Part shown: one piece after another, positions 41,930 through 49,108 of the stretch | How positions within the stretch are numbered: the first letter of the stretch is position 1 | How the letters are laid out: each line of letters opens with the position of its first letter | Assembly (NCBI GenBank): GCA_024680795.1 | Contig: JAILBR010000043.1 | Span: 1 to 61,780, forward strand | Origin: Bacilli bacterium | GTDB taxonomy: Bacteria; Bacillota_I; Bacilli_A; RFN20; CAG-826 | Direction: 5' to 3' | DNA: 61,780 bases | Notes under the pieces: model-generated | Database searches by the model: none | Told to the model about the DNA's origin: nothing | Seen by the model: the letters and a program-made list of their open reading frames with translations, nothing else | Position numbers and translations under genes: made by a program

Positions 41930-42154
41930 TTATATCTTCTTAATCACTTTATTATCTGGAATATCTTTTATAACTTTTGGGCATTCTCCACCAACTTGAA
42001 TGTCGTACATTATTTGTCCATCTTCTAATAATTTTATGCTATATATTGTTCCCTGAGTTGCATCATTTTTATGATCTTTAAACAAGACAAAATCATCAAT
42101 TTTGAAACGAGAATCAATCATATCTGGCTTCTTTTTCTTTTTTAGCCAACACAT
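41930..42154 (-). CDS. Small hypothetical protein (possible SH3/KOW-like beta barrel)
   Basis: 74 aa; start overlaps the stop of the upstream nuclease gene (TAATG); FKIDDFVLF...GTIYSI...YDIQV pattern. Confidence 0.65.
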   Translation of the reverse strand: MCWLKKKKKPDMIDSRFKIDDFVLFKDHKNDATQGTIYSIKLLEDGQIMYDIQVGGECPKVIKDIPDNKVIKKI

Positions 42155-43356
42155 TATTGTTTCCTCTTCCTTAGTAAAATTAGTGAAACCCCTAATAATG
42201 AAATGGTGGATAAAATAACACTTGTTGTAACAATGCTACCACCACACTTTGCTTGCGAGGTTGGATTTTCTGGTTCTTCTGGAGTAACTGGTGTATCTCC
42301 AATAACCACTATTTTGCATTCGGCATATTTACTCTTATCTGAAACATATGCCTTGATAGACACTTCTCCCGCCTTTATTAATCTTACATTGCCATTAGTA
42401 GATACTGTGGCAATGCTTTCATCACTAGATTCCCATATAACTGTTTTATCTAGATATTCTTCCGGAGTGATTGTAGCGGTTAATTTAATCTCATTACCGA
42501 CTCGTAATCTTAAAGAGGTATAATCTATCGTTATTTCTGGCTCTTTGAAATAGTTAGCACATATCTTTTCAGTTTCAGAATTATATTTGCCCCATATTCT
42601 GCAAGCATACTCTGGATGATCTATAAATGGGTTTCTATTTCCTTGAAGGCCTTCCACCGCTTCATTTCTCGTTATTTCTCTACTTGTAACACTATATTGA
42701 ATATTCCATTTCAAAAGAGTGGATAATTTACCCATTGTATGGTTATCTTTATTATCAAAATCTTTGTCTACAAGGGATAATTGAGGGTCAGCAACAACAC
42801 AATAAAATATAATTCGAGCGGCATCTCCACGATATGTATAATCTCCTAATGAGCCAGGATCCCATCCTGCTCCTGATGGATCGGTGAAGAAGCTATTTCC
42901 TCTACCTTCATTGTCATCCTTTAAAGCAGGTCTAATCATGTGCATATCATTTTCAATATCGTTTTGTCCTCTTTCCCCAGTATTAATAACTAGTTTAGAA
43001 AAAGGCCAAACATGTTCTCTATTCATATTTCCGCTGAAAGAAGCAGACTTTCCACTATAATAAGCGGTTACCTGTCCGTTTCTTGTTCCTGGATCGGTTG
43101 TAGAAAAATAAGACGACATATTGTCATAGTAAATAAGTCTTTGTCTCTTGGTGGCATTTAGTGATTGCAAAGAAGTCAATAATTCTGTACTTATTAGTTT
43201 ATAATCGATGTTTGCATAATAGGTTGCTGCATCATTATTCTGATAAGCTTCAACAGCTATATATTCACCGTTTTTTGATGTAGATAAAGTGGCAAGAGAA
43301 AAGAATGCAACAAATGTTGCAAAAAGACTGAATCTAAATGCCACTTTTTTATCCAT
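42154..43356 (-). CDS. Secreted/surface endonuclease I family protein with one Ig-like domain and C-terminal anchor
   Basis: Signal peptide; NREHVWP, DMH, RGDAARIIFY, RNE...QGNRNPFIDHPEY; Big_2 (VIWESSDESIATV); CGGS-TM-basic tail; start ATG 43356. Confidence 0.9.
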   Translation of the reverse strand: MDKKVAFRFSLFATFVAFFSLATLSTSKNGEYIAVEAYQNNDAATYYANIDYKLISTELLTSLQSLNATKRQRLIYYDNMSSYFSTTDPGTRNGQVTAYYSGKSASFSGNMNREHVWPFSKLVINTGERGQNDIENDMHMIRPALKDDNEGRGNSFFTDPSGAGWDPGSLGDYTYRGDAARIIFYCVVADPQLSLVDKDFDNKDNHTMGKLSTLLKWNIQYSVTSREITRNEAVEGLQGNRNPFIDHPEYACRIWGKYNSETEKICANYFKEPEITIDYTSLRLRVGNEIKLTATITPEEYLDKTVIWESSDESIATVSTNGNVRLIKAGEVSIKAYVSDKSKYAECKIVVIGDTPVTPEEPENPTSQAKCGGSIVTTSVILSTISLLGVSLILLRKRKQ

Positions 43357-46216
43357 TGACTTTTCTCTTTTTAATAACAACTAGAACAATACCTACTAGA
43401 GATAGAGCGGAAAGAATCGCGCTCGTTGCAACAATGTTGCCTCCGCAAGAACTGCCTGATGATTGATTTTGTGGCACGGCATCTAACGCTGCTTTAGCAT
43501 TGGCCAAAGCTGAATTAACACCCGAGATATCAGCGGCTGCGTCGATTGCAGAAATTCCTTTTGAAAGTTCTTGCGCTAACTTTGCTTTATTTTCATCACT
43601 ATATTTATTCAAATTTAACGATGCATAATAAGAATTTAGTTCTCTCTTTGCATTATTCTTTACACTAATAGTTGGGTCAACAATAGTTAACGTGAATTTA
43701 TCTGTTTTTCCTTCATAAGAAACAATTATTTCTTTTTCACCAGCGGTTGATAAATTAACATCACTCAAAGTATAGCCAGTTTCAATTGGTTTGGTTGAAT
43801 CATTATCATAATGTGCAACAACATTTAAACCAGCAGGATCAAATGTTTCTCCAACGTTATATGTAGTCTTTGTAGGTCCAGAAACAGTTATTTTTACTAA
43901 TGATGGTTCAATTGGCTTTTCATTAATAGTGATAGTACATGAAGTAGAGAATCCACCATCGAGTGTCACAGCAGTAATTGTTACTATTCCACCTTCTCTA
44001 GCGGTAACGACTCCATCATTTACACTAGCAACTGATGAATCACTACTTTCCCAGGTAATATTTTTATTTGTAGCGTCATTTGGTGAAACGGTTGCCGCTA
44101 ATGTATAGGTATCACCTGCATCCATTTCCAATTCTGTTTCGCTTAATGCGATACCGGTGACCTTTATTTCTTCTGCTTCTGCAGGCTTAACTGTAATGGT
44201 ATAAGAAGTTTGTACCTCAATATCACCATCTTTATATTTAACAACAATTGTTTTATCACCCGATGTAGTCATGTCTGGCTCGGTGACAAAAGTTGGTGTT
44301 ACTTGTTTTGTTTGGCTGTTTGAATAGTTGGCAACACAAACACCATCAAAACTAAATTCATCATTTAAATCATAAACAGCGGTATAAAGACTGATTGAGA
44401 TAGACTCTAATGTTCCGGTATCAGGCACAACGCTACCACCGATTTTATATATATAAAAAGGCGTATAACTTCCAACAGAAGCATAGAATCTATTATATTG
44501 ACCATTAGCAACTAAAAATCTGTTGTGACATGTTAAATAACCTTGACTGGTTACATTACAAAGTCCACCTGTATCTTGATAATAGAAAACATTAGAAGTT
44601 TCAGAACAATCAATATATTGTTGTTCCTCTGCGTCATATAAGCAGAATCCACTACTTGAATAATTCTCAACAGTGAATTTTCTCCAATCCTTTAAATCAT
44701 CTGAAATTCCAGCTGTATTGCTATATGTAGCGTGTTTCCCAGAAATGCCTGCGGCAGTTTCGCTTTGGGCCAAAACAACTTTATCGCCTTCCTTTAATTG
44801 AGATGTTGCAGTTATTGGAGTTAATTTATCATCACTGACATGGGTAACAGTAACATCAACAGTTGCTGTTTTGGTAATATCGCCTTGTTTGGCTTTCACC
44901 ACTATTTGAGTTGTTCCTTCTTTAACACCAGTTACATTTCCTTCGCCATCAACAACAGCAATAGTGGTATTTTTTGATTCAAATTCAAAAGCTGCAAAAG
45001 GATAAATAAAACTCGGAACAGTTGTGACGTTAATCTTTCTAACATCACCTTCATCAATAGTTAATGAAGAGCGGTCGACTTCAATATCAGTAATAGCAAT
45101 TGGACTAGGTTCAACAACAGTGACTGAACAGGTTGCTTTTACTGATTTATCCCTAGTAGAAGTTGCAGTTATTACGGCAGATCCCAACCCTTTTCCTTGA
45201 ATTAGGCCATCTTTACTAACTGTTACAACACTATCATTACTAGTTGACCATGTGACATCTTTGGCAGCTTCACTAGGTGTAACAGAAGCAACAGATAAGG
45301 TTGATGTTTCATATAAAGCAATGGTTAATTCTTCTTTGTTTAGTGTAATACTTTCTGGCTTATTTCCTTCATATGGATCGTTAGCGCATAACGCTTTTGT
45401 GGCTTCGTTTGTATTGCCCCAAATGCGACATACATATTCTGGGTGATCTATGAATGGGTTTCTATTTCCTTGAAGATATTCAGCGCCTTCATTTCTATTA
45501 TTTTCTCTTTCGCTAATTGGGTAGCTTAAATGCCATTTAATGAGGTCTGATAATTTACCCATTGTGTGGTTACCAGTCGAATCATCTGTTTTATCGACAA
45601 GAGAAAGCATATTGGAAGCAACCACACTATAAAATGTAATTCTTGCTGAGTCACCTCTATATGTTTCATCTCCAAATGATTCCATAGCCGGGTCCCAACC
45701 ACCGCTTGAGCTTTTCATTCCTTCTACGAAGAACGAATTTCCTCTTGAACCATTTTCGCTTTGTATAGTAGGTCTTGGCATGTGGACATCTTTTTCAACA
45801 TAGTTTCCACCTCTACTATCTGGCCAAACATGTTCCCTATTCATTCCACTAGCTTTATAAGCAACTGTGCCAGAATAGAAACCGGTTATATAATCACTAT
45901 ACGGTTGTCCGTTTGAATCATATTCAACATGTTCGGGGTCATAATCAGTATATTTTCCAGCTGTATATAAAATTGCGTCATATCCAACTTGGCTCTTTCT
46001 TTTCGTATTATTTAAAGATCTAAGAGAACTTAACAAATCATTTCCTTCAAGCGTATCATCAACACCTTGATAATATGTTGCTGCATCATGGTTTTCGTAA
46101 GTGGCAAAAGAAGGTATATAAACTTCCTCTTTATTTAACAAAGCAACGCTTGCAGAAATTGTCCCAACGCTTAGGAACGACATAAAGGCAAGCGAAACGA
46201 TTCTTTTAATATTCAT
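43349..46216 (-). CDS. Large surface endonuclease I family protein with multiple Ig-like domains and C-terminal anchor
   Basis: NREHVWP, RGDSAR, QGNRNPFIDHPEY; three Big_2 and two Big_3-like (TYNVGETFDPAGL) repeats; helical FIVAR/SCP-like segment; CGGN-TM-basic tail; start ATG 46216 after GGAG. Confidence 0.9.
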   Translation of the reverse strand: MNIKRIVSLAFMSFLSVGTISASVALLNKEEVYIPSFATYENHDAATYYQGVDDTLEGNDLLSSLRSLNNTKRKSQVGYDAILYTAGKYTDYDPEHVEYDSNGQPYSDYITGFYSGTVAYKASGMNREHVWPDSRGGNYVEKDVHMPRPTIQSENGSRGNSFFVEGMKSSSGGWDPAMESFGDETYRGDSARITFYSVVASNMLSLVDKTDDSTGNHTMGKLSDLIKWHLSYPISERENNRNEGAEYLQGNRNPFIDHPEYVCRIWGNTNEATKALCANDPYEGNKPESITLNKEELTIALYETSTLSVASVTPSEAAKDVTWSTSNDSVVTVSKDGLIQGKGLGSAVITATSTRDKSVKATCSVTVVEPSPIAITDIEVDRSSLTIDEGDVRKINVTTVPSFIYPFAAFEFESKNTTIAVVDGEGNVTGVKEGTTQIVVKAKQGDITKTATVDVTVTHVSDDKLTPITATSQLKEGDKVVLAQSETAAGISGKHATYSNTAGISDDLKDWRKFTVENYSSSGFCLYDAEEQQYIDCSETSNVFYYQDTGGLCNVTSQGYLTCHNRFLVANGQYNRFYASVGSYTPFYIYKIGGSVVPDTGTLESISISLYTAVYDLNDEFSFDGVCVANYSNSQTKQVTPTFVTEPDMTTSGDKTIVVKYKDGDIEVQTSYTITVKPAEAEEIKVTGIALSETELEMDAGDTYTLAATVSPNDATNKNITWESSDSSVASVNDGVVTAREGGIVTITAVTLDGGFSTSCTITINEKPIEPSLVKITVSGPTKTTYNVGETFDPAGLNVVAHYDNDSTKPIETGYTLSDVNLSTAGEKEIIVSYEGKTDKFTLTIVDPTISVKNNAKRELNSYYASLNLNKYSDENKAKLAQELSKGISAIDAAADISGVNSALANAKAALDAVPQNQSSGSSCGGNIVATSAILSALSLVGIVLVVIKKRKVNG

Positions 46217-46270
46217 AATCACTCCAAACAAGTTATTCTTGCCCACACATTATACATTATGTGCGCAAAC

Positions 46271-46296
46271 AAAAAAAGCGAACTAAGTCGCTTTTT
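46271..46296. terminator. Intrinsic terminator after DUF2188 gene
   Basis: AAAAAGCG...CGCTTTTT inverted repeat. Confidence 0.65.
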
Positions 46297-46312
46297 CTTA
46301 ATTTGATAAGGC

Positions 46313-46612
46313 TTATTTCTTTTGGATTTTGCCTTTGTTCTTTCCTTTTGAAGCGTGAGAAAGATAGGCTACACCTTGGTTTTCTGCCATTTGCTTTGTG
46401 TATGCTTCGGCTTCGGCTTTAGTGTCAAATAATTTGATTACTTTGTCACTTCCAGCTCTGAAAACTTGCCATTTGCCATCACTAGCTCTTTTGGAAATGT
46501 GATAAGAAGCTGTATTCTTTTTTGGTGCTTCTTTTTCACCAGGTTTTTTTGCTTTTGCAGTTGGTTTCTTTGTTTCAACTTTCTTTGCAACAGGTTTTTT
46601 TGCAGCTGCCAT
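46313..46612 (-). CDS. DUF2188-domain protein with Lys/Ala/Pro-rich histone-like N-tail
   Basis: YHISKR..GKWQV...FDTKAEA...H...GKIQ; N-terminal AKKP repeats. Confidence 0.8.
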   Translation of the reverse strand: MAAAKKPVAKKVETKKPTAKAKKPGEKEAPKKNTASYHISKRASDGKWQVFRAGSDKVIKLFDTKAEAEAYTKQMAENQGVAYLSHASKGKNKGKIQKK

Positions 46613-46636
46613 AATTAAAATCTCCTATAAATAACT

Positions 46637-49108
46637 TTATTTATTATATCTTCTTTTTCTTCTAAAAGTTAATAGGCAAAAACCAATTAATGAAATAGAA
46701 GACAAAATTATACTTGTTGTAACAATGCTTCCACCACATCCATTAGATGAATTATTTGTTTTACCGTCATCTCCAGAAGGTTGATCTGGAGTTGTTGGAG
46801 TTGGCTCACTAGGTTCATCAGTATTTGTAGGTGTATCTGACTCTGTTGAATCATCTTGATTTATTGGTGTGGTTGGTTCGGTTGTCTCTGCTGAATTAGG
46901 ATCTGGGTCTCCCGAATCATCATTTGTCGTTGATTCATTAACCACGACTTCCAATGTTGCTGTTTTGGTTATTTCTCCATCAGTAAACGAGATTGTTATT
47001 ATAGCCTTTCCAGCAGAAACACCAAATGTTGAATGCTCTTCTAAGGCATCGATAGTTAAGTCTTTTAATTCTACTATTTTAGTTGATCCATCAGAATAAT
47101 TAGCGGTCACTTCTAAACCTGTAGAATCAAATGATTCACCTACGATATACGAGGCCTTTGTTGGGTTATTCGACACTATAATGCTTGTTAATGATGGTTT
47201 TTGAGGTGGCTCAACAGGTGTAGTTTTTGATTCATACGCTACCTCTATTTTGTCTAAATATGCAACACCAGTATCACTATATTCGAGTTTGAAATATTTA
47301 TATCCTTCATCAACTTCCCATATCGTTCCATCTGTCGTTATAGACTTTACGCCTAAATCAGTTCCAATGTCGCCCCTGCCCATAGAAGAATCAGAAACAT
47401 ATAGTCTCCAATTCTTTGAACCAGAAGAAGCACTAACTGAAATAGATTTAATATCTGCAGGAAGCTCAGTGATGTTATAAACTGCTTTACCAGGTTTACT
47501 ATCATTAAACTGCATTTTATCTTTTGTTCCAGCATAAATATATGCTTCTCCACTCAAATCCCCAGCTTTCCATTCATGCCAATCATAATTTGTTGTGGCA
47601 GCAAATGAAGAACGACTTATGGTTAATACATCTGATATAGTTGGTTTAGATAAAACGCTAAAGTTAATCTGTTTTGAATCTTTTGTTACACCATTTTGTT
47701 GAGCAATAACTGTGATAGTTACGTTTCCTTCTCCTACAGCTGAAACTTCACCACTATTAACAGTGGCGATAGATGCATCTGATGTTTGGAAAATAAATTC
47801 CGGAACAGGATAAGCTTTGCTTGGAGTAAATGATGTTTCAATTAGAGCTTTATCACCAACATATAATGTTGTTTTATTAGCAGATGCACTTATTGATTCT
47901 AATTCTGTTGGTTCTGGTGGATTCACAGTTACACTAACATTAGCAAACACTGTGGAATCATAACTTGATGTTGCAGTAATGATGCATTTTCCTTCACCAA
48001 CGCCAGTCACAACTCCATTGGAGTTGATTGTTACTATATTGCTGTTGCTTGATTTCCAAGAGACCATGTTACTAGCATCAGATGGTGTAACAGATGTGAC
48101 CGATAGTTGAGACATTTCATAAACTGAAATAGTCAAAGAGTCATTACTTAGTGTAATGGATGTTGGAGCAGATGCGACATATCTGTCTGCAGAACATATT
48201 TGTCGAGTTTTTTCATTTGTGTTTCCCCACACTCTACAAGCATATTCTGGGTGATCGATATAAGGGTTTCTATTGTGTTGAAAAGTTTGGACAAGTCCGT
48301 TTCTATTAACTTCAAAACTATCTGGCTCATCTTGTTGATTCCATAACAACAAATCTTCAATTCCACCCATAGTTCCTGTGCTTCCGCTTTCAGATTGAAG
48401 AGTTAATTTTGCTCCAGCACCATCACCACTATAATATCGAGTTGCCATATACATAAGGGCACGAGCTATATCACCTTTATATTCATCTGCTGGTTCGAAA
48501 ACGCCAGATAAATAGTTAGTTGTTTTGTTTCCGAAGACATCTTCACAAGCATTTTTAGTTGAGACATTTCCAAAATCAAAACTACTTCTAGAATTATTTA
48601 GCTTTTTATCTGCCGCCATTAAATGATGTAAATCACTCTTAGCAGCACCAGAAATACCATTTGATTGTGCCCAAATATGCTCTTTATTCCAAATAGCGTC
48701 TTTACCACCATTTGCGTTTATACCATATGTAACTCCATCGTCAGTAATTGAACCATGAAATGTTCCCCATAATTGAGGGTTTGACTCGTTATATTGAGCA
48801 TATAATAATCTCATTTTTGGATTCTTATCATTTGGGTCAGGGGATAATTCCCAATTTCTATCTGTTGTTCGCATTGCGATTTCAGCACTATTGTATCCGT
48901 AAACAGTATGGCCTTTTATGAGGTTATATAATGAGATTTTCAAATCATTACCAGTAGATGTTGAACTAATATTTGAGTAATATGTCGCAACATCAATTTC
49001 TTCAGCATTTACTTTTAAAATAGAGGGGATATGTTTGATTCCCAAAGTAAAAACCGTTCCAAAAGCCATTAACGATAATGAAATTGATATTAATTTTTTA
49101 TGGTTCAT
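46637..49108 (-). CDS. Surface endonuclease I family protein with Ig-like domains, acidic Pro/Thr linker and C-terminal anchor
   Basis: NKEHIW, DLHHL, KGDIARALMYM, RNPYIDHPEY; two Big_2 and one Big_3-like domain; GCGGS-TM-RRKRR tail; AAGGAG RBS. Confidence 0.9.
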   Translation of the reverse strand: MNHKKLISISLSLMAFGTVFTLGIKHIPSILKVNAEEIDVATYYSNISSTSTGNDLKISLYNLIKGHTVYGYNSAEIAMRTTDRNWELSPDPNDKNPKMRLLYAQYNESNPQLWGTFHGSITDDGVTYGINANGGKDAIWNKEHIWAQSNGISGAAKSDLHHLMAADKKLNNSRSSFDFGNVSTKNACEDVFGNKTTNYLSGVFEPADEYKGDIARALMYMATRYYSGDGAGAKLTLQSESGSTGTMGGIEDLLLWNQQDEPDSFEVNRNGLVQTFQHNRNPYIDHPEYACRVWGNTNEKTRQICSADRYVASAPTSITLSNDSLTISVYEMSQLSVTSVTPSDASNMVSWKSSNSNIVTINSNGVVTGVGEGKCIITATSSYDSTVFANVSVTVNPPEPTELESISASANKTTLYVGDKALIETSFTPSKAYPVPEFIFQTSDASIATVNSGEVSAVGEGNVTITVIAQQNGVTKDSKQINFSVLSKPTISDVLTISRSSFAATTNYDWHEWKAGDLSGEAYIYAGTKDKMQFNDSKPGKAVYNITELPADIKSISVSASSGSKNWRLYVSDSSMGRGDIGTDLGVKSITTDGTIWEVDEGYKYFKLEYSDTGVAYLDKIEVAYESKTTPVEPPQKPSLTSIIVSNNPTKASYIVGESFDSTGLEVTANYSDGSTKIVELKDLTIDALEEHSTFGVSAGKAIITISFTDGEITKTATLEVVVNESTTNDDSGDPDPNSAETTEPTTPINQDDSTESDTPTNTDEPSEPTPTTPDQPSGDDGKTNNSSNGCGGSIVTTSIILSSISLIGFCLLTFRRKRRYNK

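Follow-up and report, generated by a model that had tools for sequence, protein, structure and literature searches.

A probable cysteine-type C-terminal sorting signal on secreted nucleases of rumen and gut Bacilli, with a CPBP-family protease and an Lgt paralogue as candidate processing enzymes

Three endonuclease I genes stand in tandem in a 61,780-nucleotide stretch of DNA from an uncultured Bacilli bacterium (contig JAILBR010000043.1 of assembly GCA_024680795.1; hereafter the window, which is contig C11 of a 1.33-Mb assembly that is 74% complete). The encoded proteins have stalks of very different length (408, 965 and 823 residues in all) and end in the same short tail, in which a Cys-Gly-Gly (CGG) motif precedes a transmembrane (TM) helix and a cluster of basic residues. 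Is this tail a plain membrane anchor, or is it a signal that is recognized and processed and, if so, by which enzymes? Our preferred answer, to which we assign a probability of about 0.6, is that the tail is a lineage-specific Cys-type tripartite C-terminal sorting signal, for which we propose the name GCGG-CTERM, that is processed by a class-B CPBP protease (CPBP-B) and whose Cys is probably lipidated by Lgt2, a short paralogue of Lgt. The parts of this answer differ in strength. We are highly confident that the tail is a real C-terminal sorting signal of the Cys type and is missing from existing catalogues, have good confidence from genomic evidence that CPBP-B is its probable processing protease, and hold with moderate confidence that Lgt2 is a plausible lipidating enzyme. 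A first-pass annotation of the window had suggested a possibly unnamed Cys-directed system of C-terminal processing or lipidation in this lineage, a suggestion that the uncatalogued motif, the unrelated proteins that carry it and a co-distributed CPBP clade support.

The tail and the proteins that carry it

All three nuclease genes lie on the minus strand. The first (42154..43380) encodes a secreted 408-residue protein with endonuclease I and Big_2 domains and an AKCGG tail that scores 61 bits on the tail profile; with the stop codon excluded, this tail spans 42157..42246 and reads CGGSIVTTSVILSTISLLGVSLILLRKRKQ, comprising the signature motif, the TM helix and the basic cluster. The second (43349..46246; 965 residues) combines endonuclease I with three Big_2 domains and one Big_3 domain and carries an SSCGG tail, CGGNIVATSAILSALSLVGIVLVVIKKRKVNG, at 43352..43447, and the third (46637..49108; 823 residues) combines endonuclease I, Big_2 and Big_3 with a Pro/Thr/Asp-rich linker and an NGCGG tail, CGGSIVTTSIILSSISLIGFCLLTFRRKRRYNK, at 46640..46738, again without the stop codons. 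In these assignments, which come from open reading frame (ORF), domain and tail-profile searches, the Endonuclease_1 domain (PF04231) scores 71–133 bits in each protein, the stalks consist of Big_2/Big_3 domains, and each protein has an N-terminal signal peptide. Each nuclease ends exactly in the tail quoted for it in the first-pass annotation, which had placed the upper bound of the first tail correctly and those of the second and third one base too high. Its statement that LPxTG is missing also stands, as we find no such motif in the three proteins or ahead of any C-terminal anchor in the genome.

The tails of the three nucleases share the pattern CGG[SN]IV[TA]TS..ILS..SL.G, followed by the remainder of the TM helix and Lys/Arg residues, and 15 of their aligned columns are identical. 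This likeness is limited to the tail, with only 0–23% identity in the 26 residues upstream. Within the genome, tails are 50–69% identical as protein and 45–73% identical as DNA, and 5–12 of the 13–18 codons that specify identical residues differ synonymously between tails. Because the DNA and its synonymous sites have diverged, tail conservation reflects selection on the peptide rather than recent copying of DNA. The earlier claim that conservation exceeds the needs of a plain TM anchor is borne out by the invariant Cys and Gly and by polar helix residues that are kept despite this synonymous divergence.

How far does the tail extend beyond these nucleases? Among all ORFs of the genome, five proteins end in a hydrophobic stretch plus a basic cluster, and all five contain the CGG motif; the genome ORF scan added a subtilase (S8) with a Big_2 domain (C59:25570-27156) and a helical-repeat surface protein (C56:3-1949). 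A 44-residue tail query detected 2–8 tailed ORF ends per genome in all 22 genomes of the same genus, was also positive in another genus of the family (g3), and found none in other families of the order in this search of relatives. In an alignment of 66 distinct tails from about 20 genomes, the Cys and the second Gly are invariant (66/66), a Gly precedes the Cys in 62 and follows it directly in 58, and a helix Ser is conserved in 65. The consensus, G-C-G-G-[NSD]-[IV]-x-[TA]-[TS]-S-[IV]-[IL]-L-S-x-L-[SA], is preceded by a Pro/Ser/Thr-rich linker and followed by the rest of the TM helix and a Lys/Arg cluster. When 52 full-length carriers are aligned, the only invariant columns are the G, C and G of the tail. 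A signal peptide is present in 49 of these carriers, the other three being truncated, and none of the 52 has a lipobox or an internal TM segment. Their cargo domains include Endonuclease_1 (25), Big_3 (17), Big_2 (13), Peptidase_S8 (8), PA (5), GH32 (3), Metallophos (3) and others. The tail thus extends beyond one set of paralogues, because unrelated cargo, including subtilase, GH32 and phosphoesterase proteins, carries the same C-terminal tail; simple shared ancestry of the nucleases, which the first-pass annotation had raised as a possible refutation, does not account for it. Endonuclease I is by far the commonest cargo in the lineage (25/52), which suggests that these rumen bacteria, despite their small genomes, invest heavily in degrading DNA at the cell surface.

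A profile built from the three window tails only, run against 1.84 billion representative proteins, matched 292 clusters at E<=1e-3, and a C-x-G motif lies 25–45 residues from the C-terminus in 147 of the 150 best matches. A word-indexed search with the tail of the 408-residue protein recovered one protein, its E-values being scaled to 5.8 billion sequences and the method too insensitive for this purpose. In even sets of 400 genomes drawn from the class and from the phylum, strong tails were confined to the family of the window, in genera g1 (that of the window) and g32, and no Cys-bearing tails occur outside the family. Genus g23 carries a variant tail. With g1, g3 and g32 it makes four coded tail-bearing genera, to which SUG1798 is added; some 20 further genomes of the family are tail-free by profile search. 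The carriers are metagenome-assembled genomes of uncultured rumen and gut bacteria. Weak matches in family f28 were rejected as members, because their tails lack the Cys. These f28 surface proteins (L215, L216) end in Gly/Ser-rich, TM and basic segments (..NKGSQGGIIASAILFTL..KKKK) that may be plain anchors or a different signal.

Catalogued models do not recognize the tail. We scanned the three full proteins, their isolated tails and 41 tails singly, and the models for MYXO-, JDVT-, Synerg- and CGP-CTERM (TIGR03901, NF033191, TIGR04564 and TIGR04288) gave no match at E<=10, so the tail matches no existing CTERM model. The LPXTG_anchor model (TIGR01167) scores the tails at about 13–16 bits against a cutoff of 15.9, which some of them nearly attain or just pass (16.1), through an alignment that spans profile positions 10–33 and covers the TM and basic half rather than the LPXTG motif. 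Similar generic anchor models also give weak scores from the TM and basic part. As this half lies near or at the LPXTG_anchor cutoff, automatic annotation could label some carriers as LPXTG proteins although their genomes encode no sortase. The tail fits the Cys-type tripartite class in its order of motif, TM helix and basic cluster at the C-terminus, its invariant Cys, its presence on several unrelated secreted proteins per genome and its co-distribution with a CPBP protein.

The generic scores are also what would be expected if the tail were simply an unprocessed C-terminal anchor, spread by duplication and domain shuffling, with a free or incidental Cys and with an unrelated pair of Lgt2 and CPBP-B genes in the same genomes. 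A TM helix and a basic cluster suffice for anchoring, the distribution is limited to one family, and related lineages have similarly shaped tails that lack the Cys. A plain anchor, however, needs neither an invariant Cys and Gly outside the helix nor conserved polar residues within it, across unrelated cargo and genera. We consider this explanation unlikely, and the enzymes described below bear on it further.

Enzymes that accompany the tail

The first-pass annotation had noted that no processing enzyme is evident in the window, and we agree: neither a CPBP-like nor an Lgt-like ORF was found there. Elsewhere, three of the enzyme families that it had named as candidates are almost uniformly missing. 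Sortase (PF04203) was found neither in this genome nor in 40 of the 41 relatives, among them all genomes of the family (25/25), and exosortase/archaeosortase (PF09721) in none of 41 genomes; the control genomes gave the expected results in these searches. The rhomboid family (PF01694) reaches its cutoff in 0 of 41 genomes of the order, whereas the control search was positive in all 14 bacterial and archaeal reference genomes. This profiling leaves one CPBP clade that tracks the tail and whose genes are mostly coupled to that of an Lgt paralogue.

Tail-bearing genomes have two CPBP (PF02517) genes and most relatives have one. In our trees, class A comprises a single sequence from each genome across the order, and the class-B sequences branch together as a clade (support 99/98 and 100/99). 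Members of class B come only from the tail-bearing g1, g3, g32, g23 and SUG1798, plus one long-branch sequence from genome G293; the class was not found in the other tail-negative genomes of the family that we examined. CPBP-B proteins score 57–69 bits on PF02517 (cutoff 22.4), and the EExxxR, FxxxH and HxxxN motifs are invariant in all 18 class-B sequences, so that the Pfam score and the catalytic motifs together settle assignment to the CPBP family. Within NCBIfam, the best matches of CPBP-B are weak (Mrt_core, NF040914, 17 bits; MrtS, NF040589, 21 bits; MrtJ, NF033192, 19–23 bits), class A leans instead toward MroQ, and a sequence search of the PDB with CPBP-B gave no match. The second CPBP of genome G130 lacks the EE motif and does not belong to class B.

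The CPBP-B gene starts inside the end of an Lgt-like gene at all 17 loci first examined, as well as in G286, in SUG1798 and in the genome of the window, where Lgt2 occupies C19:33176-33949 and the CPBP-B gene, which starts at C19:33942, is truncated by the end of the contig. This overlap of 4–11 bases is kept in g1, g3, g32 and SUG1798. A promoter and terminator scan around the pair gave no excess over shuffled controls. Tail-bearing genomes have two Lgt genes, a housekeeping form of ~520 residues that passes the TIGR00544 equivalog cutoff (122 versus 118.9 bits) and Lgt2, of ~250 residues, which scores 100–124 bits on PF01790 (cutoff 24.9). In alignment to E. coli Lgt (5azb), Lgt2 retains R143, G154, Y235, R239 and E243. 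All CPBP-linked Lgt2 proteins share the signature GR[IL]GCFLxGCCYG, and their genes form a separate clade with moderate support (82/91). The housekeeping Lgt of the family (C1:10077-10850, minus strand, in this genome, and its counterparts in relatives) is itself unusual; at about 520 residues it is roughly twice the usual size, its Lgt domain being flanked at either end by additional TM regions, compared with 280–400 residues in other families of the order.

Links between tail and enzymes go beyond co-distribution. First, the genes at the G024 (g3) locus run Lgt2, CPBP-B, a 140-residue TM protein and a 1271-residue S8 and PA protease that ends in ..KKKGGCGGSIIATS.., and in G117 (g23) CPBP-B is followed directly by a 375-residue endonuclease I with a GCRAS tail (..KKGCRASIGGSS.. 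plus TM helix and KKKK). Second, the SUG1798 locus was recovered solely through a CPBP-B gene (37% identical) overlapping Lgt2, and when the SUG1798 genome was searched afterwards, as a prospective test, it yielded five strong tails of a variant form, GCKGSIIATS; no tails were found in a spirochaete whose CPBP is unrelated. Finally, greater divergence of CPBP-B accompanies greater divergence of the tail, from the variant tail of G117 to none detectable in G293, a trend that may reflect co-evolution. A plain anchor would leave the co-distribution with CPBP-B, the adjacency in two genera and the SUG1798 prediction unexplained. G117 also encodes two secreted proteins (L153 and L154) with an Asn-rich linker, a TM helix and a basic cluster, in which a Cys lies inside the helix and none before it (..ASALACTLISAIYFMLRKKKAQ; ..LAVMAVACIFFKKRKK); one of them is encoded directly downstream of a short Lgt gene.

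Several observations weigh against the proposal that CPBP-B and Lgt2 process the tail. Because the system is confined to one bacterial family, shared ancestry explains part of the co-distribution. In partial counterweight, a gene tree of class-A CPBP, standing in roughly for a species tree, rejects a single grouping of the tail-positive genera (p-AU 0.02) and requires five or more state changes; with one gene analysed and the grouping chosen once the tree was known, the rejection only hints at more than one event. CPBP-B falls far below every Mrt cutoff (Mrt_core 100, MrtS 130 and MrtJ 75 bits). By the positive-inside rule, the glutamates of EExxxR are predicted near the cytoplasmic end of TM4 and the tail Cys at the outer face, so that any assignment of the cleavage position would be tentative. 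In G293 the Lgt2 and CPBP-B genes are paired in divergent orientation and the profile detects no tail; a 169-residue membrane protein near this pair resembles a tail by eye at its end ('CAGSLLSAISAFAG..RLK'), and was rejected as it is polytopic and has no tail-profile score. Lgt2 scores below the TIGR00544 cutoff (73 versus 118.9 bits) and is altered at three functional positions of E. coli Lgt (H103Y, N146C and E151C). The GRxGCFxxGCCYG motif is also present in short Lgt paralogues of g20 and g25, two genera without the tail, where they are encoded beside ordinary lipoprotein genes and without a CPBP gene, and the short Lgt of G117 is on a different contig from its CPBP-B. More broadly, we infer cleavage, its position, lipidation and the order of these steps from genomes.

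The points that concern Lgt2 are those that would favor a variant in which CPBP-B recognizes the tail and Lgt2 does not lipidate it, so that the protease sheds the enzymes from the cell, or the housekeeping Lgt or an unrelated enzyme acts on the Cys. The tight phylogenetic link is to CPBP-B, the short Lgt type being found in tail-negative genomes too; in G117, CPBP-B stands beside its target without an Lgt gene; the substitutions at H103, N146 and E151 may matter; and the myxobacterial protease MrtX processed its substrate in E. coli without a dedicated partner (PMC11980579). Because short Lgts occur in tail-negative genera, it is the overlap of the genes, and not the phylogenetic profile, that supports the Lgt link. 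That overlap, however, is kept across g1, g3, g32 and SUG1798, the CPBP-linked Lgt2 genes form their own clade, and the five conserved Lgt residues listed above are retained. Moreover, a distant CPBP gene of an unrelated metagenomic organism (G+C content 41%) is coupled to an Lgt gene in reverse order, so the pairing recurs; no tail is visible within 12.7 kb around that pair. On balance, involvement of CPBP-B without Lgt2 also seems improbable to us.

Alternatively, the Lgt2 and CPBP-B pair could mature ordinary N-terminal lipoproteins, either as an accessory module like LnsB or as a substitute for LspA, with its link to the tail arising because both are specific to the same clade. CPBP-like LnsB of Staphylococcus aureus works in lipoprotein N-acylation (PMC7387801), the short Lgt paralogues of g20 lie among lipoprotein genes, and lipoprotein genes also lie near the distant CPBP–Lgt pair. 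An LspA-like ORF was not found by motif searches or an approximate E. coli LspA query, a weak test in a 74%-complete assembly. LnsB, however, lacks the CPBP catalytic motifs (PMC7387801), all of which CPBP-B keeps, and tail-negative relatives have lipoproteins and Lgt without a class-B CPBP. Proximity of a lipoprotein gene is expected by chance, because about 5% of ORFs have lipoboxes (~69 ORFs with an N-terminal lipobox across all contigs of this genome). Adjacency of the pair to tail-bearing genes would also go unexplained, and we regard a role confined to N-terminal lipoproteins as very unlikely. In g20, L161 (G062:C7) and L162 (G300:C9) contain a short GCC-type Lgt gene inside a conserved cluster of three N-terminal lipoprotein genes, which may be a dedicated Lgt for a lipoprotein cassette.

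A proposed pathway and its relation to known systems

If CPBP-B and Lgt2 do act on the GCGG-CTERM tail, the following steps can be envisaged. The cargo would be exported by its ordinary N-terminal signal peptide, and the C-terminal helix would first hold it in the membrane with the Cys at the outer face. Lgt2 would probably S-lipidate the tail Cys first, and CPBP-B, as an Rce1-like glutamic intramembrane protease, could then recognize the conserved helix and remove it. The enzyme would thus be kept on the cell surface by a C-terminal lipid, in a mirror image of the Lgt/LspA lipoprotein pathway. The two pathways would be alike in pairing an Lgt-family enzyme with a membrane protease, in placing the Cys at the outer end of a helix with small residues on the helix side, and in yielding a lipid-anchored surface protein as the end product. 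Indeed, C-G-G-[NS]-[IV] here looks like the lipobox, [LVI][ASTVI][GAS]C, read in reverse. By contrast with lipoproteins, the polypeptide direction would be reversed, the signal is C-terminal, a CPBP would take the place of the aspartyl peptidase LspA, and three positions of canonical Lgt (H103, N146 and E151) are changed in Lgt2.

The closest published systems are those in which a Cys-containing C-terminal signal is paired with a CPBP protease. In a recent in silico study that established this class, Haft assigned MYXO-, JDVT-, Synerg- and CGP-CTERM to CPBP 'myxosortases', described the Cys-modifying enzyme as unknown, and mentioned neither Lgt nor Firmicutes or Bacillota (bioRxiv 10.1101/2023.06.07.544157). 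Experiments published in mBio in 2025 showed that MrtX is needed for MYXO-CTERM cleavage and left the acyltransferase unidentified, with Lgt as the leading but unproven candidate (PMC11980579). Our full-text literature search found no description of an Lgt–CPBP pair serving a C-terminal signal.

In motif style, Synerg-CTERM/MrtS of Synergistota (TIGR04564, NF040589) is nearest: both signals have a Ser/Gly-rich run ending in one invariant Cys before the TM helix and basic cluster, both tag several secreted proteins and have a predicted CPBP protease, and MrtS is among the best weak matches of CPBP-B (21 bits). Nevertheless, TIGR04564 is unmatched at E<=10, CPBP-B falls far short of the MrtS cutoff of 130, and Synerg-CTERM belongs to diderm hosts with a link to type II secretion, whereas the present hosts are Bacilli, which normally have a single membrane; only here do GG and polar helix residues follow the Cys, and only here is there a co-operonic Lgt paralogue. 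MYXO-CTERM/MrtX of Myxococcota (TIGR03901, NF040914) is likewise a Cys-type tripartite signal on many surface proteins that requires a CPBP protease, and its Cys is proposed to be lipidated before cleavage, with Lgt the leading candidate (PMC11980579). It differs in its generic GCGC motif and in its diderm hosts, where it depends on the type II secretion system, and CPBP-B reaches 17 bits against a Mrt_core cutoff of 100. Myxosortase genes never adjoin their targets or lgt (bioRxiv 10.1101/2023.06.07.544157), in contrast to the overlap with Lgt2 here. In JDVT-CTERM/MrtJ (NF033191, NF033192), the CPBP gene lies beside a single target, as in G117, and MrtJ matches CPBP-B weakly (19–23 bits), but JDVT-CTERM is a proteobacterial system, usually with a single target in each genome; most genera here have 2–8, the motif differs and an Lgt partner is present. 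LPXTG/sortase A resembles the present system as a tripartite C-terminal signal on Gram-positive surface enzymes and differs from it in that here there is neither LPXTG nor sortase. GCGG-CTERM would work like the Cys-type CTERM/CPBP systems but falls outside every membership model for signals and for enzymes, and it occurs in Bacilli with a dedicated Lgt paralogue. It is best read as a new Cys-type sorting system, the first for Bacillota that our searches turned up.

More generally, an Lgt-family transferase could be the missing lipidating enzyme of Cys-type C-terminal signals, with Lgt2 adding diacylglycerol to a Cys of inverted topology before a CPBP cuts the helix. We advance this wider proposal tentatively, at somewhat less than an even chance. 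If true, these secreted nucleases and proteases would be C-terminally lipid-anchored surface enzymes, and the same logic would extend to MYXO-CTERM and its relatives. The system offers a candidate, open to experiment, for the missing step that lipidates MYXO-CTERM-like signals. Compared with the published systems, this lineage adds a Bacilli host, normally single-membraned, that would have no need of type II secretion, a dedicated Lgt paralogue encoded in overlap with the protease gene, and small soluble cargo such as the 408-residue nuclease; for these reasons, a reconstitution with two genes and one substrate should be straightforward. There are also implications for annotation and for rumen biology. 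In about 300 clusters from rumen and gut metagenomes, the tail is missed or is scored as a borderline LPXTG anchor by current models, and its cargo indicates surface display of DNA- and protein-degrading enzymes by small-genome rumen bacteria.

Two minor observations concern the loci discussed here. Between the second and third nuclease genes of the window, a lysine-rich ORF of 99 residues (MAAAKKPVAKKVETKKPTAKAKKPGEKE...) lies at 46313-46612 on the minus strand. The G024 contig L180 (G024:C3) is titled 'Gemmiger formicilis isolate ... cleanbin' at NCBI, as against its placement in the window's Bacilli family, a discrepancy that probably reflects a binning or naming error.

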